From an uncultured Gammaproteobacteria bacterium (GTDB taxonomy: Bacteria; Patescibacteriota; Patescibacteriia; Magasanikbacterales; UBA10003), in assembly GCA_964365025.1 (NCBI GenBank), contig CAYIOJ010000001.1, positions 1-40,474 on the forward strand: DNA of 40,474 nt, written 5' to 3'. The translations under genes and the position numbers were made by a program. Every line of letters begins with the position of its first letter. The stretch's first letter is position 1. The notes below the pieces were generated by a model. It did no database searches. It was not told the DNA's origin and was given only the letters and a program-made list of their open reading frames with translations. Shown in pieces: positions 1,688 through 40,474 of the stretch.

Positions 1688-1716
1688 TTGACAAAAGATG
1701 GAAATTATGATAAGAT
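1688..1716 (+). promoter_or_regulatory. sigma70-type promoter of DMT gene
   Basis: TTGACA (1688-1693), 17-nt spacer, TGn-TAAGAT (1711-1716). Confidence 0.75.
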
Positions 1717-1783
1717 ACACAGCCAAACTTAACTTGGGTTGGGAGAGATTTTTAGCACTTTTACAACTCGCAAGGAGGAAGTC

Positions 1784-2677
1784 ATGTATTGGCAAATACC
1801 AGTCATGTGCCGAGTCATCATCGGTTACATGATCGCACCAGCATTGATCAAGAAGATCGCTACCGCGCCTTCACGCACACGCTCTTTGGTGTGGCAGTAT
1901 TTCTTCTCAGCCGTTTTCGCTTTGAGCATCGCCCTGATCGCAGGCGCGAATCTATGGGAAACACGAGTGATCGCGGTGGCTATCATCGGCGCGTTCAACG
2001 CCTTTGCCTGCTATTGTCATTGGCGGGCAGTAGATATCAGCTTGAGCCGCACTTCGCTTTTCACTCAAGCAGATGACCTTATTTGCTTGGCCTTAGGGTA
2101 CATTATTCTTGGCGAGGGCAAATTCTTGAGTACCTGGCTTGGCATAGGACTGACACTTTCACTAGTGTCAGTATCTATATTCACCTTTGCCAAGACACGA
2201 ACGCCAAAGGCCGATAACGCCCAAAAGCCAGAACAAAAAAAATGGACTATCGGCATCTGGGTAATGCTTTACAGTGTTATCTGGGGGGTGGCCGTCTTTT
2301 CCATGCGCTACTTTTCTCTTCAGGGAATGTCGCTCCCCGGTTACATTGCCGCTTGGTATAGCGGTTCGTATATCGGCGCGCTCGTGGTATTCTTGCTGGG
2401 AGGCAAAAAAGAAGCGGGAGCACCACTCAAGAGGGCACAGATTCTACGAGTTGCCCCGCTTTCTCTGGTCATCTGGCTCTCTCTTATGTCGGTCTACTGG
2501 GCCAAGATGCTCGCGCCGATCACCGTGGTCCAGCCAATCTTCCAGGTCTCCGAAATGATATTTCCAACCCTCATTGGGCTCTGGATTTTCAAAGAGGCCA
2601 AGGAAATGAATATCTGGAGTCGCTTGGCCATTGTCCTTGGTCTAGCCGGCGGCACCATCATTGCCTTGAGTTTTTGA
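1784..2677 (+). CDS. DMT/EamA-like membrane transporter
   Basis: 297 aa from ATG 1784, preceded by AAGGAGG (1772-1778). About 10 TM segments in two repeats, ending in LGYIILGE and IGLWIFKE (EamA-like). Confidence 0.75.
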   Translation: MYWQIPVMCRVIIGYMIAPALIKKIATAPSRTRSLVWQYFFSAVFALSIALIAGANLWETRVIAVAIIGAFNAFACYCHWRAVDISLSRTSLFTQADDLICLALGYIILGEGKFLSTWLGIGLTLSLVSVSIFTFAKTRTPKADNAQKPEQKKWTIGIWVMLYSVIWGVAVFSMRYFSLQGMSLPGYIAAWYSGSYIGALVVFLLGGKKEAGAPLKRAQILRVAPLSLVIWLSLMSVYWAKMLAPITVVQPIFQVSEMIFPTLIGLWIFKEAKEMNIWSRLAIVLGLAGGTIIALSF

Positions 2678-2701
2678 ACAACAAAGCAAAACACAACCCA
2701 C

Positions 2702-2738
2702 GCCCATCTCATGCCAGTTGAGGTGGGCATTTTTATTT
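2702..2738 (+). terminator. Intrinsic terminator of DMT gene
   Basis: GCCCATCTCA-7 nt loop-TGAGGTGGGC followed by ATTTTTATTT. Confidence 0.8.
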
Positions 2739-2769
2739 AAATTCTTCTTCTATTGCCAGAGGAAATCTA

Positions 2770-2797
2770 TTGACAATATCATATTTTGTGCTATTAT
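2770..2797 (+). promoter_or_regulatory. sigma70-type promoter of hypothetical gene A
   Basis: TTGACA (2770-2775), 16-nt spacer, TGn-TATTAT (2792-2797). Confidence 0.7.
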
Positions 2798-2868
2798 ATT
2801 AAACATATCTTAGGGCAAGCAAAGTGTTTGCCAAAAGAACAATGCTTTTTGACAAGTGAGGTGAGAGA

Positions 2869-3939
2869 ATGAACCCGACCATGACCCCTGAAGAATTCGC
2901 CGCTATGGCGAATACCGATGACACTATTCCCATCCCCGCCAATGATGACTGGAAGACAGACGCCGCACTCCGGCGCATTGAACGCAGGATGATCCGGGAT
3001 GAGAACAACCCAGCCGGCTTCGCGGCCTTCTGCCAGGCAGTCCTGGCCGTTGGCATTACCGACGCCGGTAACATGCTCTTCATCGAGCTGGGAGGAGTCA
3101 TCAACGGCCTCCGGCGCCTCAAGCCCTGCGACAATGACACGGTCCGAATCCTTTTCGAGAAAACGAGACGGGCAATCCACGACCTACCAGATGGACCGCG
3201 CAAGGAGCGGCTGGACGGCCTCTGGGACTACAATGCTGGCATTTTCGCTCGCGAGAACGGCGAATACGACCTCGCCGCTCGATCCCAGGAGAGTGGAGCA
3301 AAAAAGGCAGAACAGGCCGGCAACAGGGAGGGTGCGGCAATCTGTGCCTTCACGGCTGCGGTGGAATGGGTCAACCACGCCCTGGTCACTGACCATGGGC
3401 TCGCGCAGGCCGTGCAGCGCCTGCTGGACACGCAGAACAATATGGCTACTGTGCCGCCGACTAGCAACGAGTACCACTGGGTGATGTTCAATGCGCCCGC
3501 GCACCGCATCGTGGCAACTTTCTGGGCCGGCGTGCAGTATGATCAGCTTGATATTGATATTCAGACGCTTCGCCAACTCCACACTAACGACCCCAACATG
3601 GCCCAGGCACACGAGAGCACGCTCGCTGTGTGCTCCGCTATCCATGCCCTCGCGAAGGGAGACACGGATCGCGCTAGCCTCCTGGCCCAAGGTGTCATCT
3701 ACCACCACACCGACGAAGTCCATCCGGATTACTTGGCCACGGCCCACCTCGTTCTCGCAAGGATCACCCTGTTCCGCATCAGCGGACACAGAGGCTCCAA
3801 TCTCTCCCACAACCAGGAGGATGTCCATAGACAATACAAGTCCATCATCAACCTGCCACAAGAGGGCGCCTTCCAAGTGCGCGCCGTTGCTCGACGCGAG
3901 CTCGCCGGCATCAACGACACTGACAGGAACGCCGACTAG
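2869..3939 (+). CDS. Hypothetical all-helical (TPR-like) protein A, homologue of 8031-9050
   Basis: 356 aa, Ala-rich and helical. SD GAGGTGA at 2858-2864. GC-rich (39/60 G+C in 3001-3060 by hand count). Shares ordered motifs with protein B. Confidence 0.85.
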   Translation: MNPTMTPEEFAAMANTDDTIPIPANDDWKTDAALRRIERRMIRDENNPAGFAAFCQAVLAVGITDAGNMLFIELGGVINGLRRLKPCDNDTVRILFEKTRRAIHDLPDGPRKERLDGLWDYNAGIFARENGEYDLAARSQESGAKKAEQAGNREGAAICAFTAAVEWVNHALVTDHGLAQAVQRLLDTQNNMATVPPTSNEYHWVMFNAPAHRIVATFWAGVQYDQLDIDIQTLRQLHTNDPNMAQAHESTLAVCSAIHALAKGDTDRASLLAQGVIYHHTDEVHPDYLATAHLVLARITLFRISGHRGSNLSHNQEDVHRQYKSIINLPQEGAFQVRAVARRELAGINDTDRNAD

Positions 3940-4001
3940 CCGCTCTTGCCACCCGCCGCCTCACTTTTCATTGAGTGAAGCAACAGAAACGAGAAAAATA
4001 A

Positions 4002-4056
4002 AGGTCTGGTAGAGAAACTGCTTAACAGCGGCCAATCTGCCAGACTTCATTTTTTT
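4002..4056 (+). terminator. Probable terminator downstream of gene A
   Basis: AGGTCTGGTAGA (4002-4013) pairs with TCTGCCAGACTT (4036-4047, two G-U pairs), 22-nt loop, then a T run at 4050-4056. Confidence 0.6.
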
Positions 4057-4110
4057 ACCTATCCAAGCTCTTGTTTTCCTACCTTATTCCGTGCTAAACT
4101 CATTTCAGAT

Positions 4111-5475
4111 ATGTCCAACACCTTTAAACAACTCATAATCCTTGCCGGAGACGCTTTGGGGTTTTATTTAGCCCTATTTTTGGCTTTAACTCTGCGCTAC
4201 CAAAAAAACCCCTGGCCGGAAACCTGGTCCAGCCACTGGCCGACCTTTTCTCTGATTTTTTTTCTTTGGCTGGTTATTTTTTATTTAAACGGCCAGTATG
4301 ATTTGCGCAAAACCAAAAATGACTTGCAATTTTTTAGTTCTTTTTTAATTGGAATCGGCATCAACTTGCTTTTAGCCATTGGCTATTTTTACATTGTCAA
4401 TTTGCCGAATTTGAGTCCCAAGACTATTCTGTTATTGTTGGTAGCCATTTATCTGCCTTTGTTCGCCTTATGGAGGCTACTGGCGCATTTTTTACTGCGA
4501 TCCTCTACCTTTGGCGCGCGCCTGCTTTTTCTAGGCCTAACCAAAGAGGCGCAAGAATTGATTTCTATTTTTTCCAATAATCCGCAGTTGGGATATAACG
4601 CGGTAGCGGTGGTGTCAGAAGAACAAAATCAATTTCTTAATGAACTGCCGGCGGCAGTGGAAAAATTATCCGGCTTTGATGGACTCTTGAATTATGTTAA
4701 AATCAAAAAAATTGACACTCTAATTCTGTCTCTGCCTAATACCGACATCGGTCTGAATCGCTTGCTTTATGAAATCATTCTTTCCCGCGTCAACATCGCC
4801 AATATCAATTCTTTTTACGAAACAATCACTCACCGCGTGCCTTTGGCCGCGCTTTCGGAAACATGGTTTTTGGAAAATTTAAAAGAAACGCGTAAAAATG
4901 TTTACGACAAAATGAAATTGGCAACTGATTTTGCGCTGGCCATGATAATGATGACCGGTTTTTTGGTTCTGCTTCCAGTCTTGGCGTTGATAATTTATCT
5001 GAATGACCACGGGCCAATTTTTTATCGCCAAACCCGCGTGGGGCGCGACGGCCAAATTTTCACTATTTGGAAATTCCGAACCATGAAAATTGGAGCGGAA
5101 AACAACGGTCCTCAATTTGCCTCTGTGGGCGACAGCCGCGTAACCGCCGTAGGAAAAATCTTGCGGCTGCTGCGTTTGGATGAATTGCCGCAAGCCATCA
5201 ATATCCTTAAAAATGAGATGAGTTTTATTGGGCCAAGACCGGAACGACCGGAATTCGTGGCGGAATTGCAAAAATTAATGCCCTATTACAACGCGCGGCA
5301 CTTGATCAAGCCCGGGCTGACCGGTTGGGCGCAGGTAAATTACAATTACACTGATTCTTTTGAGGGCAATCTGATGAAATTGCAATTTGATTTGTTTTAT
5401 ATCAAAAATCGATCCCTTTTAGTGGACGCGATTACTCTTTTGAAGACGATAAAGTTGATTGGGGCGGGAAGATAA
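4111..5475 (+). CDS. Polyprenyl-phosphate glycosylphosphotransferase (WcaJ/WbaP family priming sugar transferase)
   Basis: N-terminal TM helices, central Rossmann-like domain, C-terminal Bac_transf motifs KFRTM, RLDELPQ, MSFIGPRPERP, KPGLTGWAQV. Confidence 0.95.
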   Translation: MSNTFKQLIILAGDALGFYLALFLALTLRYQKNPWPETWSSHWPTFSLIFFLWLVIFYLNGQYDLRKTKNDLQFFSSFLIGIGINLLLAIGYFYIVNLPNLSPKTILLLLVAIYLPLFALWRLLAHFLLRSSTFGARLLFLGLTKEAQELISIFSNNPQLGYNAVAVVSEEQNQFLNELPAAVEKLSGFDGLLNYVKIKKIDTLILSLPNTDIGLNRLLYEIILSRVNIANINSFYETITHRVPLAALSETWFLENLKETRKNVYDKMKLATDFALAMIMMTGFLVLLPVLALIIYLNDHGPIFYRQTRVGRDGQIFTIWKFRTMKIGAENNGPQFASVGDSRVTAVGKILRLLRLDELPQAINILKNEMSFIGPRPERPEFVAELQKLMPYYNARHLIKPGLTGWAQVNYNYTDSFEGNLMKLQFDLFYIKNRSLLVDAITLLKTIKLIGAGR

Positions 5476-5486
5476 CCAAAATTTTG

Positions 5487-5566
5487 GTCATTGCGAACGA
5501 AGTGAAGCAATCTCGTGCGGGATTGCTTCGTCGCTCCGCCAGCTGGCGGATGCTCCTCGCAATGAC
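5487..5566. repeat. REP/RPE-like palindromic element with nested 16-bp perfect palindrome
   Basis: Terminal IR GTCATTGCGA/TCGCAATGAC, inner stem GAAGCAATC/GATTGCTTC, nested TCCGCCAGCTGGCGGA (5535-5550). Lies between convergent genes. Confidence 0.88.
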
Positions 5567-6481
5567 TTACTCCATTCCCCAGTCCGCTTTCAACATTTTA
5601 ATGCCATCTTCCAGTTTTATTGATGGCTCCCAACCAAGCAATTTTTTGGCTTTGGCATTATCAGCTCCGGAAAAACGCTGATCGCCCGGACGAGGATCAA
5701 CGAAAACAAACTTGCCACCCATAATTTTTACCAATTCATTAACTGTGGTGGGGCGTCCGCAACCGATATTTATTGTCTCGCCTTTGCCAATATTTTTTGA
5801 AGTAGCCGCCAAGATATTGGCCGTGACAACATCATTCGCATGAGTGTAATCGCGAAAATATTCTCCGTCGCCGCAGACAGTCATGGGCTGTCCCAGTTTT
5901 TTTTGTTTTAAAAATTTACCAATAACCAGAGCATAAGCGCCGTCCGGGTCAAAATACGAGCCATAGACATTGAAATAAATCAGACTTACTGTTTCCAGGC
6001 CGTATAATTCAGAAAATATCCGGCAATAATTTTCACCAATCAGTTTGTGCAGGGCATAAGGGCTGACCGGTATTTTAACTGTGCCGTTTTCTTTTAATAA
6101 ATTACCCGCCTCTTGACCGCCATAAGTGGATGAGGAAGAAGAAAAAACCACTCGCCTGACCTTATGACGACGCGCGGCCATTAACACTTTAAATGTGCCG
6201 TTGACATTGATGTCATGTGTCAATTCCGGATTTTCCACGGAAAAAGTGACGCGAGGCAGAGCTGCCAAATGAAAAATTGTGTCCACCCCAGGGCAAACTT
6301 TATCCAAATCATTATCGTTTCTAATATCGCCTTCCACATACTCGGCGCCCGATTGCATTCTATCTTCTTTTTTGCCAGCTGCGTAATTATCCAAAACAAC
6401 CACTTGGTGTCCGTCAGCCAGTAATTGTTTGACTAAATTTGTGCCGATAAATCCGGCTCCGCCGGTGACAAGATGTTTCAT
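5567..6481 (-). CDS. NAD-dependent epimerase/dehydratase (extended SDR, WbpP/GalE-like)
   Basis: TGGAGFIG, HLAA, SSSS, SPYALHK (YxxxK), YFNVYG, RDYTH motifs. Confidence 0.93.
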   Translation of the reverse strand: MKHLVTGGAGFIGTNLVKQLLADGHQVVVLDNYAAGKKEDRMQSGAEYVEGDIRNDNDLDKVCPGVDTIFHLAALPRVTFSVENPELTHDINVNGTFKVLMAARRHKVRRVVFSSSSSTYGGQEAGNLLKENGTVKIPVSPYALHKLIGENYCRIFSELYGLETVSLIYFNVYGSYFDPDGAYALVIGKFLKQKKLGQPMTVCGDGEYFRDYTHANDVVTANILAATSKNIGKGETINIGCGRPTTVNELVKIMGGKFVFVDPRPGDQRFSGADNAKAKKLLGWEPSIKLEDGIKMLKADWGME

Positions 6482-7863
6482 ATTTTTTTAATTAATGTAC
6501 TGCCCACTGCGATAATCACATATCCCTTTTGCGCTAATTCCGCATATTGATGCTGCAAAATCCTGCGACCATCCATAATTAATGGCTTTTCCCCGGATTG
6601 CGCTAATAAAATATCGCCCAAACTTCTGAATTGCGGCCAATCGGTGGCAATGATTATCACATCCGCGCCTTTAATCGTGGCGACTTGATCGTCAAAATAT
6701 TTGATGATATCAGTTTTAGAAAATAATTGTTTGAAACCATCGGTGGCCGCTGGGTCGTATGCCTGAATCGCCCCAACTTGTTTTTCCAATAAAAAACTAA
6801 CGATGTCAATGCTGGCCGAATTGCGAGTGTCATTGGTTTCTTGTTTAAAAGCCAGACCCAACAGAGCCACAGTTTTCCCAGACCAGCTAAATCCAGTTTC
6901 TTTTTCAGCTCGACCAATAAATAATTCCAATTGTCGTTTATTGGCCAAATAAGTTTCATCCACCAAAACGGCATTTTGCCCGGCTGTTTGCAACTGATGC
7001 GACAGCGAACGCGCGTCTTTAATAAAACAGCTGCCGCCGGCGTACAAACTGTCATAAAGTCCCCACTTGCCAATGCGCGGATCACTTATTAAAATTTTAC
7101 GAAGATTTTCAAAATTTAATTCTGAAAAAGTTTCACAGGTTCTGCCGATGACATCAAAACAAACAGCCAATTTATTAAACAACATAAAATTGGCCAGCAA
7201 TTTTCCAGCCGCCGCTTCTTTGGGATTAGTTTCAATATATTGAACAGTGGAAGAATTATAAAAACGTTGATAAATTTGGCGCATCACCACAAAATCTTTT
7301 TCCTGCCAAGCGCCGACCACCACTCTATCAGGATGCAGTGAACCGATGATGGCCTTGCCTTCAACTAAAAATTCCGGATTGGATGCCACGCCAAAATTTT
7401 TTACGCCGGCTTTGGTCATTATTTTTTCCGTTTGCTCAACCATGTTAATGGGCACAGTGCTTTTGTTAACGATAACAACATCTTTTTCTTGCCGGCCATT
7501 GTTTCGTTTGGCCAAGGCCATGGCTAATTTTTCAGCCGCGGAAAAATAAAAAGTCAAATCACTCTCACCTGTCTCCCCTATTTCAGGCGTTGGCAAACAC
7601 ATAAAAATGGCATCGCAATCACTTAAAAACTTTTCCACTCGCGAGTAATCGGTTGTAAAAGAAATCCTTTCTTTATTGCGAATCAACAAATCGCCCAGCC
7701 CATCTTCAAAAAGGCAGGATTGAATAGTATCGCGGTCTACGGAGGATAGGGCGGCAATTTTCCGCGCGTCAACATCAAAAACAAAAACATCATGCCCGCT
7801 GTCAGCTGACACTGCCGCCGAACAGGCGCCAACGAATCCGGAGCCGATGTAGAGAAGGTGCAT
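6478..7863 (-). CDS. ugd: UDP-glucose/GDP-mannose dehydrogenase family protein
   Basis: GSGFVG, CLPTP, KSTVP, SNPEFLVEG, GGSCFIKD (catalytic Cys), GLAFKQETNDTRNS, DGRR motifs. Confidence 0.9.
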   Translation of the reverse strand: MHLLYIGSGFVGACSAAVSADSGHDVFVFDVDARKIAALSSVDRDTIQSCLFEDGLGDLLIRNKERISFTTDYSRVEKFLSDCDAIFMCLPTPEIGETGESDLTFYFSAAEKLAMALAKRNNGRQEKDVVIVNKSTVPINMVEQTEKIMTKAGVKNFGVASNPEFLVEGKAIIGSLHPDRVVVGAWQEKDFVVMRQIYQRFYNSSTVQYIETNPKEAAAGKLLANFMLFNKLAVCFDVIGRTCETFSELNFENLRKILISDPRIGKWGLYDSLYAGGSCFIKDARSLSHQLQTAGQNAVLVDETYLANKRQLELFIGRAEKETGFSWSGKTVALLGLAFKQETNDTRNSASIDIVSFLLEKQVGAIQAYDPAATDGFKQLFSKTDIIKYFDDQVATIKGADVIIIATDWPQFRSLGDILLAQSGEKPLIMDGRRILQHQYAELAQKGYVIIAVGSTLIKKI

Positions 7864-7888
7864 AATTTTTATTCTTTAAATTGTCTGT

Positions 7889-7917
7889 ATATTATCATAA
7901 ATTGTGTTTTTTGTCCA
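7889..7917 (-). promoter_or_regulatory. sigma70-type promoter of ugd-epimerase pair
   Basis: Minus strand TGGACA-17 nt-TAATAT with extended TG. Confidence 0.6.
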
Positions 7918-7932
7918 TTTTAGCGCCTACTA

Positions 7933-7961
7933 TTGACAAAAACAACTAAATTAAGTACAAT
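7933..7961 (+). promoter_or_regulatory. sigma70-type promoter of hypothetical gene B
   Basis: TTGACA (7933-7938), 17-nt spacer, TACAAT (7956-7961). Confidence 0.78.
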
Positions 7962-8030
7962 AATGATAGAAAATCCAATGATTGCCAAATGGTTTGGCTA
8001 TCAGCTGGATTACCAACCAAGGGGGAATCA

Positions 8031-9050
8031 ATGAACATTGACATGTCAAGAACCGACGCCGAGATTGCCGCTAAACTTGTGGCAACCAATTACACGGATG
8101 CGTCTTTGATTCATAGAGACATCTTAGGCGCTCTCATGGGCCAACCCGGCGGACCCGAACGATACGGCCGCATTTTCCGGATCATGAACGGACTTGTTGA
8201 TGATCCAGCGCGCCAGGCGGATTATCTGCTCTCGGCTGTCTACGGCTTCCGCAATGGCAGCGGCCTTTGGGACGCCGGAATGGTGCGCGGCCTGATTGAT
8301 ATCGTTTACAGACTTTTGCCTAAGGTGAGTGAAGACGCTCGCGTTGAGCTTCAGCGGCGATGTCTTTATCATTTGGGATTGGTCCAGCGCGAAGTGTACG
8401 TGCCCGACCATTTCCTTCATGCCGCCGAGACCCACGGACGCGCGGCCGCGCTTGCCGTAAACGAGGCAAAGAGGGCAATCGAGCTCGTTGTTGCCGCGGT
8501 GGAACGTTTGCATCACGCGATTGAAATCAATGATGCAAACGCTTTTAACACGCACCTGCTAGTACTTGGCCAGCTGGAGGAGATACTCTCATCTGTGGCC
8601 ACGAGCACCGGCGATGCCGAGGCAATGAAATGGCTCAAGGCGGATATTCCGGCCCACCGTTTCTACGCCTGTTATCTCATGGGCGTGCCATATTCCAAAT
8701 CCGGAACTGATCTCGCTTCGCTCACCGGGCTCACCGAGCCGCTGGCCTCGCAATACGCGGTTTGGATTGACATCTGCGCCGGGCTTAACAGCGTCAGAAT
8801 CACTGTTGCTGATAGCTATTGCTCATGGCAAGATAGAGAAGAAACATTCTCTATTGCCGAAAAGGTGTTGGCACGAAACGGCCATCCGACTCACATGGGC
8901 TTTGGCCTCCTCATCGCGGCTATCGCTCACCGCGACACCGGCCATCGTCAGCTGGCTTGTGAGCTCGCCCGCTTCATCGTGAACTACCCGACCCACGGCG
9001 CTCACTTTGTCCGCACCACCGCCAAATGTCTGTTCCTAGAGAGACGCTAA
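8031..9050 (+). CDS. Hypothetical all-helical (TPR-like) protein B, homologue of 2869-3939
   Basis: 339 aa from ATG 8031 with SD AAGGGGG (8019-8025); the ORF track starts at 7989. GC-rich (36/60 G+C in 8221-8280). Shares ordered motifs with protein A. Confidence 0.85.
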   Translation: MNIDMSRTDAEIAAKLVATNYTDASLIHRDILGALMGQPGGPERYGRIFRIMNGLVDDPARQADYLLSAVYGFRNGSGLWDAGMVRGLIDIVYRLLPKVSEDARVELQRRCLYHLGLVQREVYVPDHFLHAAETHGRAAALAVNEAKRAIELVVAAVERLHHAIEINDANAFNTHLLVLGQLEEILSSVATSTGDAEAMKWLKADIPAHRFYACYLMGVPYSKSGTDLASLTGLTEPLASQYAVWIDICAGLNSVRITVADSYCSWQDREETFSIAEKVLARNGHPTHMGFGLLIAAIAHRDTGHRQLACELARFIVNYPTHGAHFVRTTAKCLFLERR

Positions 9051-9065
9051 CAGCTCTCTTCCGCT

Positions 9066-9104
9066 CCGCACGTCTTCAAACTAACCAGACGTGCGGCTTT
9101 TTTT
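9066..9104 (+). terminator. Intrinsic terminator of gene B
   Basis: CCGCACGTCT-11 nt loop-AGACGTGCGG (perfect 10-bp stem), then C and a 7-T run. Confidence 0.85.
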
Positions 9105-9169
9105 AAAACTTTAACACATTTCTTTGCAACCATGGCCAAATTCCATATTCAACCACAAGTAATTATTTC

Positions 9170-10657
9170 TTACCCGCGCACAATTTCCTTTATCACTAGC
9201 CTTAAAGTCAACCAAGGACCTTTTTTAAACACGAAAGTAAACAACCAAAGAATAAATAAATAAAAAAATGCCAAAAAGATGATCCACGCAGCCAAAAGTG
9301 GTTTGCTAGAAAGAGAATGAATAAAATCTCTAAATAAAAAAACCACTAAAAAAGAGCACAAGCTTGCCGTTACCACGCCAAAAATAGAATAAAAAACCCT
9401 ATCTTCCAATAAACGCAAGAAAGATCTGGCCTGAATTAAAACATATATCAACAAAATTGCGGCGATTAAAACCGCCGAGGCGGCTATGCCATTCACACCG
9501 GCTATTTTTATTCCCAAAAAATAAATAGGTACGGAAATCAACAATTGAAATAAATTTGATTTAAAATTTAAATCAGGACGCCCAATCGCTCCAAAAATCG
9601 GTCGAATCATTCCTGTTAACCCAAAAAAAACACCATAAACAGACAAAATTTTTAATGGCACAACTATCGGTAGCCATTTTTGTCCGAACAGAACAGAGAC
9701 TATAAAACCGCCTTCCACCAAAAGCAGCAGACTAAACGGTATTGTCGACAGAAGTATAAGATCCAAACTTTTTAAAAACCCCTCCTGTATTTTATCCCGC
9801 TTATCCTGAACTTTGGCATAAGCGGAAAATCCTATTTTATTCAAAATCCCCGTCAGATTGGCCGAAAACATAGAAGGCAAATCTCTGGCGCGCGTGTAAT
9901 ATCCAAGATTGGTCGGTCCCAGCCACCTTCCAACAATCATGCTGTCTATCGCACCTAAAAAATACTCAAGCAAATTCTGGCCGTAAACCCATTTAGAATA
10001 CCCCACCAACCCTAAAAGATCGCGAAATCGAAAAGAAAAACGCGGCGCAGTAGGATACAAGACATAGGTAGAGACAGCGCCGACAATATGACGGGATACT
10101 TGCCCTATAAAAAGAGCCCAAACCGTAGAGCTGACAAAAATAGCCCAGGCAACAGAAACGATCGTATTGGCAATCTGACCGGCTAGGTCTCTAAAAAAAA
10201 TTTTTTTATAATCCAAGTCTCTAAAAAAATAAAGTTGTCGGCTGTTTGAAAAAGATCCAATAACAAAAAAAATGCCGCTCATTTTTATCAAGATTTTATA
10301 ACTTTCTTCAATTTTAAAAATTTCCGCAATTACTCCGCCCAACAAAAAAATTATAACGGCGAGCAGTGTGGCGCGCAATAAATCAAAAGTCCAAACAGTA
10401 TCAATCATTTTTTCAGGGCTCTCTTTCCTTTGTATCAAAGCGATGCTGAATCCTGGCGCCGCGAATCTATCTATTACACCGCTAAACAGCAAAGCCACGG
10501 TCAAGATACCATAATCTTTAGGCGACAAAAGACGAACTAATACAAAAAAAGAAACTAGATTGAGCAATTTTTGGGCGACCACGCTAATCATAAACCACTT
10601 ACCGCTCCGGATTGATTTTTGAAGCGATCCTTCATTTGTGTTTACTCCGTCTGTCAT
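9170..10657 (-). CDS. wzx: Wzx-type polysaccharide flippase (WzxC/PST family)
   Basis: 495 aa multi-TM; LVRLLSPKDYG, ALIQR, GRWLGPTNLGYY, LFGQKW motifs. Confidence 0.9.
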   Translation of the reverse strand: MTDGVNTNEGSLQKSIRSGKWFMISVVAQKLLNLVSFFVLVRLLSPKDYGILTVALLFSGVIDRFAAPGFSIALIQRKESPEKMIDTVWTFDLLRATLLAVIIFLLGGVIAEIFKIEESYKILIKMSGIFFVIGSFSNSRQLYFFRDLDYKKIFFRDLAGQIANTIVSVAWAIFVSSTVWALFIGQVSRHIVGAVSTYVLYPTAPRFSFRFRDLLGLVGYSKWVYGQNLLEYFLGAIDSMIVGRWLGPTNLGYYTRARDLPSMFSANLTGILNKIGFSAYAKVQDKRDKIQEGFLKSLDLILLSTIPFSLLLLVEGGFIVSVLFGQKWLPIVVPLKILSVYGVFFGLTGMIRPIFGAIGRPDLNFKSNLFQLLISVPIYFLGIKIAGVNGIAASAVLIAAILLIYVLIQARSFLRLLEDRVFYSIFGVVTASLCSFLVVFLFRDFIHSLSSKPLLAAWIIFLAFFYLFILWLFTFVFKKGPWLTLRLVIKEIVRG

Positions 10658-10682
10658 AAGCTAAATAAAAATTTGTCGTAAA

Positions 10683-11744
10683 TTAATTAAAATGGTGAAA
10701 TGTCGTCAAAAACCGTTGTTCTTCCTTATTAAGAACCGTCTTAATTTGGGACAATGCAAGAACCCGCTTGCCTTCCGTGCTATAATCCATTACTCGGCTT
10801 CTTTTTGCTCCCGGATAAATTTTGTCTATATTATGTCCGTTTTGAAACCGACCGATAACTGGCACGATGATAAACATATCCTTCGTTTCCAAAGCAAACA
10901 TGGATTCATCTTTAGTTAACAATTTTTCGTGAATACGTTCACCTGATTTTTTACCCACCACCTCAATTTTAACTTTCTTCGGATCAAAGCCAAAGTGCGG
11001 CGCATAAAGCTCTATCATGGCTTTGGCTAAATCAATAATCTTTAAAATTGGCATTTTAAAAATAAAGATCTCTCGCTCTTTCATCATCCCGGCAGCTTTC
11101 AACACCAAACCGACCGCCTCATCTTTTGACATAAAAAATCTCTCCATTTTTGTATCGGTCACCGTAACTGGACCGCCTCTCATTATTTGTTTGTAAAAAA
11201 GAGGTAAAACCGAACCCCTGGTATTTAAAACATTGCCAAAACGCACAAAACAAAATTTAGTCTGCTTTTTACCCTGATAATTATGAGAGGCCAACATAAT
11301 CTTTTCCGCCAAAAGTTTGGTGCATCCCATAACACTCACCGGATCAGTGGCCTTATCGGTAGAGATGCCAATTACTTTAGAAACGTTATTAGCCAAAGCG
11401 ACGTTTATAATATTTTGAGTGCCGATGACGTTGGTTTTGACCGCCTCAAACGGATCATTTTCACAAAATAAAACATGTTTCATGGCGGCGGCATGAAAAA
11501 CAATATCCACATCTTCCATGGCCATGTTTACCCGGTCATAATCCCGAATATCGCCTATTAAAAATCTTACTTTCTCGCTCTTTTTTCTCAATTCAAGCAT
11601 CAAATCGTGCTGTTTACTCTCATCGCGACTTAAAACACGCAAACTCCGCGGTTTAAGTTCTAACAACTTCTTCACCAATTCTGAACCAATAGAGCCTGTT
11701 CCGCCAGTCACCAATATCTTTTTGTTCTTAAATTCATTTTGCAT
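10683..11744 (-). CDS. UDP-GlcNAc 4,6-dehydratase family (Polysacc_synt_2; CapD/PglF/PseB-like)
   Basis: TGGTGSIG, SRDESKQ, HAAAMKHV, STDKA, SVMGCTK, VRFGNV, MERFFM motifs. Confidence 0.92.
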   Translation of the reverse strand: MQNEFKNKKILVTGGTGSIGSELVKKLLELKPRSLRVLSRDESKQHDLMLELRKKSEKVRFLIGDIRDYDRVNMAMEDVDIVFHAAAMKHVLFCENDPFEAVKTNVIGTQNIINVALANNVSKVIGISTDKATDPVSVMGCTKLLAEKIMLASHNYQGKKQTKFCFVRFGNVLNTRGSVLPLFYKQIMRGGPVTVTDTKMERFFMSKDEAVGLVLKAAGMMKEREIFIFKMPILKIIDLAKAMIELYAPHFGFDPKKVKIEVVGKKSGERIHEKLLTKDESMFALETKDMFIIVPVIGRFQNGHNIDKIYPGAKRSRVMDYSTEGKRVLALSQIKTVLNKEEQRFLTTFHHFN

Positions 11745-17181: not shown

Positions 17182-17186
17182 ATCGT

Positions 17187-18943: not shown

Positions 18944-18954
18944 ACAAAAATGAA

Positions 18955-20163: not shown

Positions 20164-20170
20164 ATAAATT

Positions 20171-23591: not shown

Positions 23592-23608
23592 AACATTACT
23601 TTTTAAAT

Positions 23609-24427: not shown

Positions 24428-24435
24428 CTTACTTG

Positions 24436-25464: not shown

Positions 25465-25504
25465 ACAGACAATATCAAATTAATTATAAAACATTCGAAC
25501 AAAC

Positions 25505-26662: not shown

Positions 26663-26682
26663 AATAAAACTACTCTGCCAAT

Positions 26683-28146
26683 TTAAGATTCTTTATACCG
26701 CAAAGGATAATTTTCTGGAATGCCGACGCTTTGTCTTTTTTGTTTCATAAAATCTCGACACTTCCCTAAAAACTCCATAATATCATCTTCTGTGCAATTA
26801 TGCGGTTTAAAATGAGGGCGCAAGGCATAGAGATATTCTCTTTTGTAATTATAACCCCGTTCATGATCATATTTTAACAAACCGTGTTCAACACAATATT
26901 CATACAATCTTGTGCCAGGATATGGCGTAGCCAATGAAAAGCTAACCCGGTCAACTGGCAATTTTGTTATCATTTCATAGGTTTCTTGCATTGTTTCACG
27001 TGTCTCTTGAGGCATGCCGATAACAAAGTAAGCTCCTATATACAGATGTTTATGTCTAGCGCAATTTTGAAAAACCTCATAAATCTTTTCGGTTTTAAGC
27101 CTCTTGCCAATCGCCTCATTTCTAATATATTCCGACCCGCTTTCAGGAGAAAGATTAATTTTAACTAAACCGGCTTTAACCATGGCATCTATAACTTCTT
27201 GATCTAGAGAATTTATCATTGCGCCGTTCGGAGTATCAAATTGAATATTCATTCCTCTTTTAAGAATCTCATCGCAAATGGCTAATATCCTCTTTTTATC
27301 CAATGTAAGATTATCATCTAAAAAAGAAAAATACCGCGCGTTGTGCTTAATATACAAATTCTCCATCTCATTTACAACATGGCGCGGTGTTCTGAATCTA
27401 GCTGTCGGCCCATGCACTAACCACATACCACAAAAGGAGCATTTAAAAGGACAACTCCTGCTTGAAAGAATGGGGAAAGGCGTGCCAATTTTTATTTTTT
27501 TGGGCGAATACCACTTAGATGTGTCAAATTCATAATTTTTAGAATCTAAAATATCAAAATCAACAAATGGCAATTCATCTAAATTGCCAATGAACGTTGT
27601 TTTGTTTTTCTTAACCGCTTGCCCGTCTTTTCTAAAAACTATGCCGTCTATGGAGTCTATTATTTGACTGCCGCCAGTTAAATATTTTACCAATTTTAAA
27701 AAAGTTTCTTCCCCCTCACCTAAAACAATATAATCAACATAGTCACACTCTTTCAATATTTCCACAGGAAAAAGAGTGGCGTGAAGGCCGCCCATTACAA
27801 TCGGTGCGCTCGGAAAAAGATCTTTGGCTTTTTGGGCTATCATTTTTCCACAATCAAACGCTCCGGAAAAAAGACAACCAACCCCGATAATATCAGGCAC
27901 AAAATCTCCAATCTGTTGAGAAATATTTTTTTCAATATACTCTTGAGGTGAGTAATCGCGCAATTGCCCCTTAAGCAGTCTGGAATAATATGTATTATAA
28001 AAATCCACTATTTTCACTTCTATATTATTTTTTTTTAGTACGGACGCCAAATAAAGCAATCCCAAAGGATAATGATAAAGCGGGTCGGTGTTAGAAAAAT
28101 CAACTTCCGCGGCTATTGAGTTTATGAGCAATACTTTGGTGGGCAT
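26683..28146 (-). CDS. Cobalamin-binding radical SAM protein
   Basis: PLGLLYLASVL, PDIIGVG, MGGLHAT, GEGE; SSRSCPFKCSFC; DDNLT, ESGS, FVIGMPQET, PYPGT. ATG 28146 preferred. Confidence 0.93.
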   Translation of the reverse strand: MPTKVLLINSIAAEVDFSNTDPLYHYPLGLLYLASVLKKNNIEVKIVDFYNTYYSRLLKGQLRDYSPQEYIEKNISQQIGDFVPDIIGVGCLFSGAFDCGKMIAQKAKDLFPSAPIVMGGLHATLFPVEILKECDYVDYIVLGEGEETFLKLVKYLTGGSQIIDSIDGIVFRKDGQAVKKNKTTFIGNLDELPFVDFDILDSKNYEFDTSKWYSPKKIKIGTPFPILSSRSCPFKCSFCGMWLVHGPTARFRTPRHVVNEMENLYIKHNARYFSFLDDNLTLDKKRILAICDEILKRGMNIQFDTPNGAMINSLDQEVIDAMVKAGLVKINLSPESGSEYIRNEAIGKRLKTEKIYEVFQNCARHKHLYIGAYFVIGMPQETRETMQETYEMITKLPVDRVSFSLATPYPGTRLYEYCVEHGLLKYDHERGYNYKREYLYALRPHFKPHNCTEDDIMEFLGKCRDFMKQKRQSVGIPENYPLRYKES

Positions 28147-28162
28147 AATTGTGAGCGGACGG

Positions 28163-28411
28163 TCACCATTTATTAATCTTGTTGACAACCTTCTGTTTTA
28201 ATTTGAGATAAGAATGAACTGCCGTAGCTTCGACCTGCGGCGAGACTATTCGTAACAGCTCTTTACCTAAAATACGATACTGACGGCCCAATTTATTAGC
28301 CTTAATCAGTCCATTTTTAAGGAACCTCTTCATGGTACTTTTACTTATTTTTAATAGCTGTTGCGCTTCATCAGTGGTGTATACCGAATAAGGCCTAATT
28401 TCTTGATCCAT
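28163..28411 (-). CDS. Small helix-turn-helix protein (excisionase/HTH_17-like)
   Basis: YTTDEAQQLLKISKSTMKRFLKNGLIKANKLGRQYRI matches the Xis/MerR-like winged HTH pattern. Confidence 0.88.
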   Translation of the reverse strand: MDQEIRPYSVYTTDEAQQLLKISKSTMKRFLKNGLIKANKLGRQYRILGKELLRIVSPQVEATAVHSYLKLKQKVVNKINKW

Positions 28412-28446: not shown

Positions 28447-28475
28447 ATTATATCTCCAATAATTCGAGGTGTCAA
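28447..28475 (-). promoter_or_regulatory. Perfect-consensus sigma70 promoter for HTH gene and downstream operon
   Basis: Plus strand ATTATA (28447-28452), 17 nt, TGTCAA (28470-28475), i.e. TTGACA-17-TATAAT on the minus strand. Confidence 0.85.
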
Positions 28476-30091: not shown

Positions 30092-30107
30092 GCAAACTTC
30101 TTACTAT

Positions 30108-30140
30108 AAAAAGAATGGCCAGAGTTGGCCATTCTTTTTT
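30108..30140. terminator. Bidirectional intrinsic terminator
   Basis: AAAAAGAATGGCCA-GAGT-TGGCCATTCTTTTT, a perfect IR between convergent genes. Confidence 0.88.
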
Positions 30141-30149
30141 ATTTTGTCT

Positions 30150-30938: not shown

Positions 30939-30946
30939 ACGCTGTT

Positions 30947-32026: not shown

Positions 32027-32062
32027 ACTTTATTTAAAAAATATCTTATTAATCAATTAATT

Positions 32063-32443: not shown

Positions 32444-32457
32444 AATTAAACAGATAT

Positions 32458-33663: not shown

Positions 33664-33726
33664 ATGATTAGTCTATTTTAGCAAAAACTATGCAATTTTG
33701 CAATCACTCAAATACCCACAAATACA

Positions 33727-36794: not shown

Positions 36795-36799
36795 AAAAT

Positions 36800-37405: not shown

Positions 37406-37431
37406 AGCATAAATCAAAGATACTTTTGATT

Positions 37432-37460
37432 ATTTTATCATTTTTATCTTAAAATAGCAA
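37432..37460 (-). promoter_or_regulatory. sigma70-type internal promoter
   Basis: Minus strand TTGCTA-17 nt-TAAAAT with extended TG. Confidence 0.6.
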
Positions 37461-37636
37461 TGCCAGCGTTATTCATCACTATCTTACGGATTGACCGATA
37501 TCTGATAATCCTTGCTTCCAATCTGTCATCATCTTAAAACAATAACTGGATCGTTAAGTGTCGCAATCATACCGACAGGCAACTTCTATTGTGAGGGCAA
37601 GACTTTCTATTTTAATCAATTTGTGTCCAGTTGTAA

Positions 37637-39166
37637 TTATTTCTTAAGCACTTTGCGTCCCAAAAAATAAGTCCCTAAATAATATCTAATGACTCTTACC
37701 CGTCTAAAAATACAAAATTCGAGCGAAGGGGAAAAATAAAAAAGCGCCTGAGATAATTTGGCGAGTAATAAATCCGATTTTAAAAGCAAAAAAACACCCG
37801 GGTGCTTCTTATTAAAAACTGACCCGTGAAAAATGTGTTTAAATGTTAAATAAAAATCCGCAATCTCTTTCTTTAAATCATCTGAAAAATTAAAGAAGTT
37901 TTTATCAAGCGCGTATAAAGAGCTGACTTCCAAAATATTCGTAAAATATGCCCTCTGTTTAAAATAATAATCGGCATCCAAATACCATTCTTTCGCCTCT
38001 GGCGTTTCATCATAATAAATTGTGCCGGGTGTAGGACTTAATACGGTTGCCAGTAGTCTGTTGGTGTATTTTGTTAAACCCAAAAATGCTTCTTTCTCTT
38101 TTCTTATCAGTTCTGTATTTTCAAAAGGAAATCCAACCAGTATAAAGACTGCTGGGACTATGTTTTGCTTAGTGAACAAAGGAAAAACTTTATGAACAAG
38201 CTCAACCGATGTGTTTTTGTTTATTCCTTTAAGCGAGTCGGGCACCAGGCGCTCTAAACCAAAATTAAACCGGTAGAATCCGGCTTCTTTCATCAGGCGT
38301 ATGAGATCTTCATCGACGGTTTCTAGCTTTGTCTGACAAGAAAAGGTGATTTTTTTGTTTAAACCAGACTCAATAATTTTATTACAGAATTTAACAACTC
38401 GTTCGCGATTAAGCGTAAAATTATTATCGCAAAAAATTAAATAAAAAACTTTATATTTATCATATAAATCAACCACATTTTTAAATAGCCAATCCGCTGA
38501 TGCCATTCTTTTATCGTCTCTTTGGATTGAATCGGAGCAAAAATTACATCCAAAAGGACAGCCTCTTTGCCCGGTGATATTAAATAATCCGGGTTCATTT
38601 TTTGTTTTAATGTAATCATCGATGTTAAAAAGTTGATAATTTACAATAGGAACATCGTCTAAATTTTCTAAGGCTGGGAATTCTTTGGCAAAATGAAAAC
38701 TTCCGTCTTCTTTGATAAAGGAAACGCCGGGAATCAATTTGAGATCTTGTTTATACTGCGTCCTCTGATTCTCTATGTGCTTTAAAAGCGGAAGAATAAC
38801 TTTTTCGCCATCCCTATTGACTACCACGTCAACTCCGTGCCGCAGTGCTTCTTCAAAAGATCTCCTCATGTGGATTCCACCCGCAATTATCGGCATATTT
38901 GGAAAAATGGATTTAAATTTTAGAATTTGCCGATAAGTTTCATAGGCATTTTGGATTGATATGGCATAGGCCAGAACATCCGGCTTATATAAATTTATGG
39001 CTCTCAAAAAATCTTTTTCAGTATAATACTTGTAATGAGTATTATTATCTATAACTTTAACATCGTGTCCGGCATTGTGAGCTATCGTTGCGACAATCCC
39101 CACCCCAACACCAAGCACAGAGGTGGAAGATGTTAAACAAGAATTTCTGATAAATAATATCTTCAT
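37637..39166 (-). CDS. Cobalamin-binding radical SAM protein
   Basis: GHDVKVID, PDVL, IAGGIH, DGE; QRGCPFGCNFC; DNNFT, GLE, GFPFE, PTPGT. Confidence 0.92.
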   Translation of the reverse strand: MKILFIRNSCLTSSTSVLGVGVGIVATIAHNAGHDVKVIDNNTHYKYYTEKDFLRAINLYKPDVLAYAISIQNAYETYRQILKFKSIFPNMPIIAGGIHMRRSFEEALRHGVDVVVNRDGEKVILPLLKHIENQRTQYKQDLKLIPGVSFIKEDGSFHFAKEFPALENLDDVPIVNYQLFNIDDYIKTKNEPGLFNITGQRGCPFGCNFCSDSIQRDDKRMASADWLFKNVVDLYDKYKVFYLIFCDNNFTLNRERVVKFCNKIIESGLNKKITFSCQTKLETVDEDLIRLMKEAGFYRFNFGLERLVPDSLKGINKNTSVELVHKVFPLFTKQNIVPAVFILVGFPFENTELIRKEKEAFLGLTKYTNRLLATVLSPTPGTIYYDETPEAKEWYLDADYYFKQRAYFTNILEVSSLYALDKNFFNFSDDLKKEIADFYLTFKHIFHGSVFNKKHPGVFLLLKSDLLLAKLSQALFYFSPSLEFCIFRRVRVIRYYLGTYFLGRKVLKK

Positions 39167-39248
39167 GGTGTTCTCTAAGTCATTAAGTTAATTTTTATTA
39201 TCAAAACTTTTTTATCATATCTTGACAATCTAAACCTGGCACCAAACT

Positions 39249-40196
39249 CTAATCAAAATTTATTCTTTCTTTTTCAACCACCAGCGGTCTATGCTTTACT
39301 TGAGTATAAATTGCGCCAATGTATTCCCCAAGAATACCAATAAAAAATAATTGCACGGAGGCAAATAAAAATATACCGACAACGAGCGGCGCCAAACCGA
39401 GTTGAAATTCTTGCCAATTTAATAACTTACGGATTAAATAAATCAGGGCGACAGTAAAACTTATCATGGACATGCCAAATCCAATGAAACTAGCAAGCCG
39501 CAGTGGCAACTTAGAGTGATTGACAAAACCAAGCATGGCCACATCATAAAGAGTAAAAAAATTATTTTTGGTTTTTCCTTTTTTGCGAGTTGGCTGAAAA
39601 TATTCAACTTTCGCGCACAAACCACCAAATTCATTAATCAAACCGCGAAAATAAGGATACGGGTCGTCCAACTTTTTTAAAATATCTATAAATTTGCGAT
39701 CGTATAAACCAAAGCCAATAAAATTTTTAATATGATCATCTTCCGTAATCATTTTCAAAAGCACGTAATACAACTGACGCGCCCACTTAATTAATCCTTT
39801 TTCTTCGCTGTTGCTCCTAACGCCCACTACCACTTCGTAACCAGCTTCCCATTGTTCAAAAAATTTCTTGATTAATTCTGGCGGATCTTGCAGATCCGCT
39901 GCCAAAAATATAGCCGCGTCCCCTACGGTTTGAAGCAACGCGTGATAAGGTGACCGGATATGGCCAAAATTTCTGACATTTACTATAATTTTAACTCGCT
40001 TATCTTCTTTTGCAATATCTTTTAAAATCTCCACCGTTTTGTCCTTGGAAGCATTATCAATAAATATGTGTTCATAGTCATATTGCGGCAACGACGCAAA
40101 AATATCTTTGACTTGCTCATAAACAGCAACGACATTCTCCTGCTCATTAAAGCAGGGAGTAACAATGCTTATTTTTTTTCTAGATAATTCCAGCAT
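39249..40196 (-). CDS. GT2 polyprenyl-phosphate glycosyltransferase (GtrB/ArnC-like)
   Basis: PCFNEQEN, IDNASKD, RNFG, ADLQDPP, two C-terminal TM helices, GILGEYIG..RP. Confidence 0.93.
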   Translation of the reverse strand: MLELSRKKISIVTPCFNEQENVVAVYEQVKDIFASLPQYDYEHIFIDNASKDKTVEILKDIAKEDKRVKIIVNVRNFGHIRSPYHALLQTVGDAAIFLAADLQDPPELIKKFFEQWEAGYEVVVGVRSNSEEKGLIKWARQLYYVLLKMITEDDHIKNFIGFGLYDRKFIDILKKLDDPYPYFRGLINEFGGLCAKVEYFQPTRKKGKTKNNFFTLYDVAMLGFVNHSKLPLRLASFIGFGMSMISFTVALIYLIRKLLNWQEFQLGLAPLVVGIFLFASVQLFFIGILGEYIGAIYTQVKHRPLVVEKERINFD

Positions 40197-40208
40197 ATTA
40201 ATATTAAT

Positions 40209-40237
40209 AATGTACCATTTTTCTTCTAAAATGACAA
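40209..40237 (-). promoter_or_regulatory. sigma70-type promoter of GT2 gene
   Basis: Minus strand TTGTCA-17 nt-TACATT with extended TG, 12 nt before the ATG. Confidence 0.62.
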
Positions 40238-40250
40238 TATTTTTCTATGA

Positions 40251-40303
40251 TAAAATAAATTGCGCCCCGTCCTTAACTCCCTTGAGTTTTTTGGACGGAG
40301 CGC
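40251..40303 (-). terminator. Terminator of GC-rich gene entering from the right edge
   Basis: Minus strand GCGCTCCGTCC..AACTC-AAGG-GAGTT..GGACGGGGCGC followed by AATTTATTTT. Confidence 0.7.
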
Positions 40304-40339
40304 GCGTTGTGTCCGCTGTTTAAGTAGGTCTAATTGGCA

Positions 40340-40474
40340 CTATAGGCCTTGGCCACCATAGGCCTTGGCCACCATAGGGATGATGCTATCCCGATGGTGG
40401 TGGCAAGTGTTCGGCGGAAGCTGGTCAACAGGAAACCAACTGTGCCGATCGTCCTCGCGCGGCGGACCGCCAAG
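40340..40474 (-). CDS. C-terminal end of a GC-rich gene, possibly a NUDIX hydrolase (partial)
   Basis: Manual translation LGGPPREDDRHSWFPVDQLPPNTCHHHRDSIIPMVAKAYGGQGL*. WFPVDQLP resembles NUDIX C-termini; the Nudix box would be outside the window. Confidence 0.5.
   Translation of the reverse strand, partial: LGGPPREDDRHSWFPVDQLPPNTCHHHRDSIIPMVAKAYGGQGL
40342..40378. repeat. 16-bp tandem duplication (2.3 copies)
   Basis: ATAGGCCTTGGCCACC ATAGGCCTTGGCCACC ATAGG. Confidence 0.92.

Follow-up and report, generated by a model that had tools for sequence, protein, structure and literature searches.

How bacteria of the candidate phyla radiation (CPR), whose genomes are very small and whose life is presumably host-dependent, acquire surface and transport functions is a question on which positions 1–40,474 of contig CAYIOJ010000001.1 of the assembly GCA_964365025.1 (the whole stretch being called the window below) bear. 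Pfam scanning of its 37 open reading frames (ORFs) identified the window as a cell-envelope glycan/nonulosonic-acid locus with approximately 38% guanine plus cytosine (GC), and three monocistronic units, A (1688–2738), B (2770–4056), and C (7933–9104), carry ORFs of 51–60% GC in it. The explanation we favor, to which we give about an even chance, is that these units are horizontally exchanged accessory genes lying in variable slots of a surface-glycan locus. A previous interpretation made from the letters alone (the sequence-only reading) proposed an uncharacterised route for the capture or shuffling of gene units and placed it on the span 1688–40474, most of which proved to be an ordinary native operon.

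The common plan attributed to A, B, and C was confirmed by pattern search and folding. Each unit consists of an exact TTGACA −35 box, a near-consensus −10 box, a leader of 67, 71, and 69 nt, respectively, with a GGAGG-type Shine–Dalgarno (SD) site, one GC-rich ORF (the starts of A and C were corrected to 1784 and 8031), and a predicted terminator (Table 1). The GC excess over the flanks also held: the ORFs have 50.8–59.9% GC compared with 37.8 ± 2.8% (maximum 45.0) in host windows of 900 nt between 9200 and 40200, and their GC at the third codon position (GC3) is to be compared with 38.8 for 16 pooled host genes. Four predicted terminators, each a hairpin followed by a U-run, were better than their shuffled versions (z −3.9 to −5.3, with none of 200 shuffles as good). 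The leaders gave no sign of regulatory RNA, as they fold no better than shuffles (z −0.8 to −1.3) and Rfam families had no match in the window. The fourth terminator belongs to a GC-rich ORF cut by the right edge, of which the last 135 nt (61% GC) are present; this ORF end and the strong terminator are all that the window holds of the fourth unit described before, which is plausible but unprovable.

The relatives of the locus were collected by searching the ugd protein of the window against 185,579 species genomes, which gave 16 loci (labeled L001, L002, and so on). Those nearest by ugd protein (68–81% identity) come from metagenome-assembled genomes (MAGs) of Candidatus Magasanikbacteria or Patescibacteria, two of them labeled as Gammaproteobacteria, and because these are the closest ugd relatives, the window was assigned to the CPR/Magasanikbacteria lineage; judged from sequence, its source appears to be a Candidatus Magasanikbacteria genome. 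The two loci titled “uncultured Gammaproteobacteria” (L008 and L012, with ugd proteins 81% and 68% identical to that of the window) are syntenic with the Magasanikbacteria loci and are probably mis-binned.

Comparison of the window proteins with the 16 loci by tblastn revealed a conserved backbone, comprising ugd, the epimerase, the sugar transferase in reverse orientation, and the subtilase. The interval between the sugar transferase and the subtilase (S8) measures 145 bp in L014, contains one native-GC gene of 480–527 aa in L012 and L009 and two ORFs of 101 and 392 aa in L002, and is filled by a major facilitator superfamily (MFS) gene together with A and B in the window. GC profiles showed GC-rich islands at most 5 kb upstream of ugd in five loci (L001, L002, L005, L011, and L014), the other 11 having no GC-rich gene upstream of ugd, and L010 has a GC-rich island 6.7 kb downstream of ugd. 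The island genes have 54–68% GC and GC3 of 0.61–0.89 in genomes of 41–50% GC, and their predicted products are listed in Table 1. A, B, and C are absent from the relatives at the window's positions and other GC-rich genes occupy the slot upstream of ugd, which supports the conclusion that the units are accessory and turn over among relatives. Synteny thus bore out the presence and absence looked for by the sequence-only reading, while the distance of the relatives prevented mapping of the window's own unit junctions, no locus aligning to the window outside the conserved genes. The idea that unit C splits ugd from wzx is not borne out: no relative has ugd beside wzx, and in L012, which has neither wzx nor C, a PseB-like gene abuts ugd. 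By our own count, all six islands situated between co-directional host genes run antiparallel to those genes (binomial p ~0.016).

A replacement could be followed at the nucleotide level between L001 and L002, which are collinear with 75–82% nucleotide identity over a stretch that extends from an AbiE pair past ugd as far as the sugar transferase, and which carry unrelated GC-rich ORFs in the slot (L001:7400–8490 and L002:2830–4102), encoding a 305-aa beta-rich protein in the former and a tetratricopeptide repeat (TPR)-like protein in the latter. Read in the direction of the GC-rich gene, the two upstream flanks have approximately 93% identity as far as a point about 10 nt ahead of the −35 box; TTGACA and GCCATAATA are retained, while each locus has its own, unrelated spacer, leader, and ORF. 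From the stop codon onward, the sequences are homologous again over approximately 100 nt of 3′ untranslated region (3′UTR) through the terminator, where differing stems stand at the same hairpin position. The promoter core, leader, and ORF were replaced here between conserved flanks, in a single case. A hidden Markov model (HMM) built from the conserved 3′ piece of L001 and L002 found the 3′UTR of B only at E 7.9, in the ninth place, and no copy after any other GC-rich gene. A 3′UTR element common to B, L002, and L001, which had been suspected by eye, was rejected on this value, on the lack of any match by BLAST-short, and on the circularity of a model made from all three sequences. In both loci, the GC-rich slot is separated from ugd by the AbiE pair, which consists of an AbiEii-type toxin gene (PF08843) and the preceding 205-aa gene without clear family (L001:8595–9996 and L002:4213–5608) and is a toxin–antitoxin or abortive-infection pair.

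The promoters of the GC-rich genes are strikingly uniform. The pattern TTGACA-N16-18-TANNNT has four copies on the two strands of the window against 1.2 expected, a number reached by 6 of 100 shuffles, and the sites lie at 1688, 2770, and 7933 and at the head of the native operon at 28475(−). The 5′ end is complete in 12 GC-rich genes from seven genomes (units were read in L002, L014, and L010, and upstream regions in L001, L005, and L011). In ten of these genes, TTGACA is exact, the spacer has 17 nt, and the −10 box is good, mostly with TG; the remaining two are a gene with TTGACT and the EamA gene of L001, which has no promoter of this kind. Such near-perfect promoters precede only 2 of the 49 ordinary-GC genes having an upstream gap of at least 60 nt (Fisher p 4.5e-8), a control set that rests on rough gene calls, with two island genes miscalled and genes shorter than 100 aa left out. 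A test free of gene calls gave a similar picture: among strong sites (score at least 11.5, both strands of 267,158 bp), 11 of 29 precede GC-rich DNA (at least 0.11 above its own locus), as opposed to 3.8% of positions (binomial p 4e-9). Seven of the 18 strong sites with exact TTGACA precede ordinary genes, for example, at 28475 of the window and 17706 of L010. Because these native genes also have it, the promoter type is the normal one of the lineage and not a mark of the units; by its sequence it is of the ordinary sigma-70 type, found ahead of native operons as well. The strength of the promoters can be explained if no promoters other than those of the sigma-70 consensus function in every host, so that the units carrying them are retained, or by codon compensation, as promoter up-mutations can make up for ill-adapted codons.

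The direction and source of the transfer, the route of uptake and recombination, and the reason for the strong promoters were inferred as follows. Each unit has the anatomy of an ordinary stand-alone transcription unit, in which a leader with its SD site and a single ORF lie between a sigma-70 promoter and an intrinsic terminator, and its high GC indicates that the coding DNA derives from, or circulates in, a gene pool of approximately 55–70% GC. Gain, loss, and replacement would proceed without a mobility gene of the unit's own, possibly through DNA uptake and subsequent recombination within conserved flanking genes or close to them. The near-consensus promoter may act as a retention filter or as compensation, a foreign gene being expressed and kept only if it brings along or soon acquires a universally recognised promoter. 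By codon-position GC regressions, reportedly those of Lawrence and Ochman from 1997, B points to a source of 59–62% GC at all three positions, C to one of 56–61%, and the L014 gene to one of 67–72%; B, C, and the island genes have the codon-position GC of 56–72% GC genomes with no visible decay of GC3 to the host value. Transfer is favored because of this codon-position GC, the patchy distribution, and the replacement between L001 and L002. For gene A, the source pool was probably other CPR bacteria.

Known processes, namely transformation or other horizontal gene transfer (HGT) with recombination in conserved flanks, are enough for the pattern, and nothing in the evidence requires a new capture mechanism. 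In 125 Patescibacteria genomes, islands and single transferred genes have been reported by the hundreds, mostly intra-phylum (PMC12455944), and natural competence has been reported in Saccharibacteria (PMC10187176).

Several observations weigh against transfer as the explanation. The regularity of the promoters (10 of 12) exceeds what random HGT predicts. The relatives are remote, ugd having at most 81% protein identity to any of them and the window aligning to the loci at no more than ~74% nucleotide identity. No donor was identified, the neighbors in the Atlas being unnamed clusters with 2–9 members of known phylum, which is uninformative. Orthologues of A and B (88–91% and 73–78% identity) seem to stand together on two short contigs (4678 and 5830) of closer relatives, which suggests vertical persistence, the pairing being deduced only from the equal contig sizes. 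The B/C family has three members in loci of this type, namely B, C, and the protein of L002, these being the only ones in 267 kb, and such recurrence of a rare family fits residence better than three separate imports. Finally, it is mainly the ORFs that are enriched in GC, as the promoters have 21–24%, the leaders 37–43%, and the 3′UTRs 44–52% GC; DNA taken unaltered from a 60% GC genome would present a different picture, unless the moving units are whole transcription units with AT-rich signals.

Much of this is what would be seen if the genes were a native class, that is, long-resident Magasanikbacteria genes with strong promoters, the coding GC of which is held high, for instance through GC-biased gene conversion in a recombination hot spot or through mRNA or codon selection. 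The confinement of the GC excess largely to ORFs between AT-rich signals, the association of GC-rich genes with strong promoters, the return of the B/C family in the same locus type (twice in the window and in L002), the CPR-wide occurrence of the gene A family, the A–B pairing apparently kept in closer relatives, and the codon-position GC that has not decayed toward the host value are all consistent with residence. We nevertheless regard a native class as rather unlikely, since unrelated families fill the slot in different genomes and 11 of the 16 loci are without a GC-rich gene upstream of ugd, one ORF was replaced outright between L001 and L002, the GC of the units is spread over 51–68%, as varied sources would give, and no known mechanism keeps single ORFs 20–30 points over the genome GC.

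The ends of the units share little. Apart from hexamers and hairpins, nothing is shared in alignments of the four upstream and the four downstream regions, and a repeat search over 1–10800 found no direct or inverted repeats flanking the units. No integrase, transposase, or recombinase domain was detected among the 37 ORFs, no tRNA or tmRNA gene in the window, and no attC-like R′/R″ box (GTTRRRY) in the 3′ regions read, where the hairpins are terminators with U-runs. The motif ACACAAC, regarded previously as a shared feature before the hairpin, occurs three times in the window against 3.05 expected, which is the level of chance. The sequence-only reading was right about the absence of integrase, transposase, and attC; its capture route found no backing, as the motif search on the unit ends showed no shared boundary features, a result it had itself named in advance as contrary to its proposal, and the promoter type is also native.

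These data permit comparison with known mobile units. The attC sites of integrons are paired R″/R′ boxes (RYYYAAC...GTTRRRY). Integron cassettes resemble the units in being compact single-ORF elements stacked between other genes, but they are as a rule promoterless, attC-ended, and IntI-dependent, whereas the units of the window carry promoters, have no attC-like boxes, and are accompanied by no integrase in 40 kb and no IntI or other recombinase domain in the 37 ORFs. Insertion sequences, transposons, and miniature inverted-repeat transposable elements find no counterpart in the window, which has no repeats at the unit ends and no transposase domain, and the same is true of classical genomic islands, given the lack of tRNA and tmRNA genes, integrase, and flanking repeats. 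The capsule and O-antigen loci have variable central genes of atypical GC that are framed by conserved genes and replaced by recombination. The likeness lies in atypical-GC genes inside a polysaccharide locus that is bounded by conserved genes such as ugd, wzx, and the gene of the initiating sugar transferase; however, the central capsule regions are usually lower in GC than the genome and transcribed as part of the operon, while the extra genes are here higher in GC, monocistronic, and mostly antiparallel to the operon, and none of the tests used marks B or C as a glycan enzyme.

The minimal mobile elements of Neisseria were reportedly described by Saunders and Snyder in 2002 and by Snyder in 2007. 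By definition, minimal mobile elements are variable genes that lie between fixed flanks and lack mobility genes (PMC3787668). The present loci agree with this, having differing content and composition between the same flanking genes, in relatives that are distant and not strains, and no linked mobility genes or repeats in the window. As in Neisseria, one or few genes of differing composition lie between conserved flanks without mobility genes or end repeats, and the exchange there is attributed to transformation and homologous recombination in the flanks. The differences are that the variation is found here between species-level or deeper relatives and that the units are markedly GC-rich and nearly all equipped with their own promoter and terminator. 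The units are best classed with the accessory islets that have no mobility genes, as a distinctive GC-rich variant that carries its own promoters and sits in a hypervariable glycan locus.

A dedicated cassette system, in which promoter-to-terminator or promoter-to-stop units are captured or swapped at fixed expression slots by a site-specific or structure-specific process encoded elsewhere, would account for the one plan found in 11 of the 12 complete GC-rich genes of seven genomes, for the ends of the L001/L002 exchange about 10 nt before the −35 box and at the stop codon, for the antiparallel setting of all six islands, and for the long two-tier terminator hairpins of B, the fourth unit, and, by eye, the L010 unit. 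We hold such a system to be quite improbable: the unit ends have nothing in common beyond generic promoter hexamers and hairpins, the L001/L002 3′UTR model reached B at the poor E-value given above and nothing else, ACACAAC is at chance and recombinase, tRNA, and attC-like R′/R″ boxes are missing from the window, and the ORF-precise exchange is a single case. In a broader form, fixed “expression slots” of Magasanikbacteria, and perhaps of other CPR bacteria, beside conserved envelope genes such as ugd, into which GC-rich single ORFs with near-consensus promoters and long hairpin terminators are swapped nearly ORF-precisely and with an antiparallel bias without any linked mobility gene, are unlikely as well; if they exist, they would represent either a new kind of cassette system or a gene pool with a base composition that persists as it passes through AT-rich genomes.

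As the sequences are metagenome assemblies, and L008 and L012 bear an implausible Gammaproteobacteria label, the joining of foreign GC-rich pieces into an AT-rich contig by faulty assembly or binning was also considered. This is hardly credible, because the same arrangement was met in seven independent assemblies, the ORFs are intact and framed in phase by AT-rich promoter and terminator signals between intact host genes, and the homologues of gene A are CPR proteins.

The easily recognised signature of an ORF 15–30 GC points over the genome, with its own consensus promoter and strong terminator, beside conserved glycan genes, would provide a handle for finding recently exchanged genes in uncultured lineages and for tracing their origin, possibly in hosts. 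Should the ORF-precise exchange of L001 and L002 be general, it would be a mode of gene shuffling without mobility genes that a limited literature search did not find described for this phylum. New in this work are the gene A family, the B/C family, the extension of the plan to related genomes, and the L001/L002 replacement.

Table 1. Predicted features of the window and GC-rich islands of the related loci
Feature	Position	Strand	Basis or remark
MFS gene and start of subtilase (S8)	Left of the initiating sugar transferase	−	Pfam
Unit A promoter, TTGACA-17-TAAGAT, TG extension	1688–1716	+	24% GC
Gene A, 297 aa, DMT-fold (EamA-like) membrane transporter	1784–2677	+	Predicted structure and homologues; 50.8% GC, GC3 59.7
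Unit A intrinsic terminator, 10-bp stem and T-run	2702–2738	+	−18.3 kcal/mol, z −3.9
Unit B promoter, TTGACA-16-TATTAT, TG extension	2770–2797	+	Pattern search
Gene B, 356 aa, all-helical TPR-like solenoid, unnamed family	2869–3939	+	Predicted structure; 59.9% GC, GC3 72.8
Unit B terminator, long two-tier hairpin and T-run	3992–4056	+	−38.1 kcal/mol for 3940–4062, z −4.8
Initiating sugar transferase	4111–5475	+	Pfam
Epimerase	5567–6481	−	Pfam
ugd	6478–7863	−	Pfam
Unit C promoter, TTGACA-17-TACAAT	7933–7961	+	Pattern search
Gene C, 339 aa, distant paralogue of B	8031–9050	+	24% identity over 269 aa, E 2e-10; 55.8% GC, GC3 61.8
Unit C terminator, 10-bp stem and T-run	9066–9104	+	z −5.3
wzx	9170–10657	−	Pfam
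HTH_17 gene, head of long native operon	28163–28411	−	Pfam
Native control promoter, TTGACA-17-TATAAT (perfect), ahead of HTH_17 gene	28447–28475	−	Pattern search
Fourth-unit terminator, two-tier hairpin and T-run	40251–40303	−	−31.1 kcal/mol, z −5.0
Fourth GC-rich ORF, 3′ end	40340–40474	−	Cut by window edge
Unit C as island of the window	7933–9104		Antiparallel to host genes
L001 island, EamA transporter and beta-rich protein	6373–8418		Antiparallel to host genes
L002 island, B/C-family TPR-like protein	2932–4035		Antiparallel to host genes
L005 island, beta-rich protein, MopE-repeat protein, and TPR-plus-membrane protein	5597–9935		Antiparallel to host genes
L010 island, protein of no assigned family	16729–17562		Antiparallel to host genes
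L014 island, weakly glycosyltransferase-like protein	8750–9877		Antiparallel to host genes
L011 island, secreted protein			

The AlphaFold (AF2) model of gene A (predicted local distance difference test score, pLDDT, 87.6) gave 33 PDB matches at E ≤ 1e-3 in Foldseek, and the listed matches below 8e-3 were all transporters of the drug/metabolite transporter (DMT) superfamily or PfCRT, including the CMP-sialic acid transporter 6i1r (the best match, TM-score 0.75), 5i20 (TM-score 0.76), a GDP-mannose transporter, SLC35B1, and LicB. The model has the ten-helix DMT fold, which is made up of two five-helix repeats, and gene A may on this ground be placed beside EamA/YddG and the nucleotide-sugar transporters. 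It differs from them in that its own sequence lies under the Pfam thresholds and has no PDB match by sequence; 7 of 25 aligned family members match EamA (best E 5.1e-7). A set of 5.8 billion proteins contained 177 homologues, those with names belonging to Staskawicz-, Pace-, Wildermuth-, Taylor-, Uhr-, and Giovannonibacteria, some only to a “bacterium,” and one to Omnitrophica, so the family is by sequence evidence CPR-wide. In L001 and L005, the gene next after that of the CMP-transferase is a distant A-like one (27–29% identity). Because of this position and the nucleotide-sugar-transporter fold predicted for gene A, a DMT-fold transporter suits the nonulosonic pathway, and gene A would fit the glycan locus in that role.

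Genes B and C belong to different subfamilies of one unnamed family. Neither matches any Pfam (E ≤ 0.05), NCBIfam, PADLOC, or PHROG family, and NCBIfam names none of A, B, and C. A profile made from 11 members retrieved 330 clusters at E ≤ 1e-3 and 68 at E ≤ 1e-30, nearly all of 320–375 residues and matched end to end. The model of gene B (pLDDT 88.1) is all-helical with 18 helices, and its PDB neighbors are TPR proteins (LGN, Rap, NprR, and AimR) with a best E of 2.7e-3, TM-scores of 0.52–0.57, and root-mean-square deviations of 6–10 Å, none of the 500 counted Foldseek matches reaching E ≤ 1e-3. The B/C profile matched only a designed consensus TPR protein (CTPR) in the PDB (E 0.013). Genes B and C would resemble LGN and the RRNPP-type Rap, NprR, and AimR in a predicted all-helical repeat solenoid of ~340 residues, but they lack a Pfam TPR match, no HTH domain or linked peptide gene was seen (no search aimed at these was made), and the likeness is one of generic fold; for gene B, the model allows us to say TPR-like scaffold and no more.

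A role in defense or phage biology was rejected after PADLOC gave no match and PHROGs one weak match (E 0.0042) for nine proteins scanned. Carriage of gene B by phages or plasmids was likewise dismissed, as tblastn with B, the only gene so searched, matched none of 72,556 plasmid and 50,697 phage records. This unnamed family of ~340-residue TPR-like proteins is now defined and deserves a functional test.

The terminators are of two forms. Two-tier hairpins with an outer stem of 11–12 bp, an internal loop, a 5-bp inner stem, and a tetraloop stand at 3992–4056, at 40251–40303(−), and at ~16660–16710(−) of L010 (the latter judged by eye from the printed sequence only), and simple stems terminate units A and C and the native transcript at 30108–30139. 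The best tandem repeat of the window (score 76), 2.9 copies of the 16-nt TTGGCCACCATAGGCC at 40334–40378, covers the last codons of the edge-cut fourth ORF; since the period is not a multiple of three, PMVAKAY is read in two minus-strand frames. The promoter of unit C is back to back with a promoter-like site of ugd at 7917–7889(−). Over 30 nt, the promoter of unit A (1690–1719) is 80% like this ugd site (7886–7915, minus strand), including TTATGATAA-ATACA, and a kinship of the two was discarded, the likeness being by our own estimate about that of chance for 10.8 kb. The antiparallel GC-rich island of the window (unit C) is on the C-rich plus strand, and the GC skew falls steadily over all 40 kb.

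The long native operon on the minus strand encodes five B12-binding or SPASM radical-SAM enzymes, methyltransferases, glycosyltransferases, wzx, and a nonulosonic-acid set consisting of NeuB, a CMP-transferase, a GFO oxidoreductase, a 2-epimerase, a hexapeptide transferase, DegT, and a PseB-like protein. Radical-SAM genes are dense at 18050–28188 and 37637–39166, where three have a B12-binding domain, one is below the B12 cut-off, one is of the SPASM type, and one is plain. The predicted presence of these enzymes and of methyltransferases within a nonulosonic-acid/glycan operon suggests heavily modified sugars. The HTH_17 gene at its head encodes an 82-aa excisionase/MerR-like helix-turn-helix protein and overlaps the next gene by 26 nt; from its domain and position, it is possibly the regulator of the long glycan operon.

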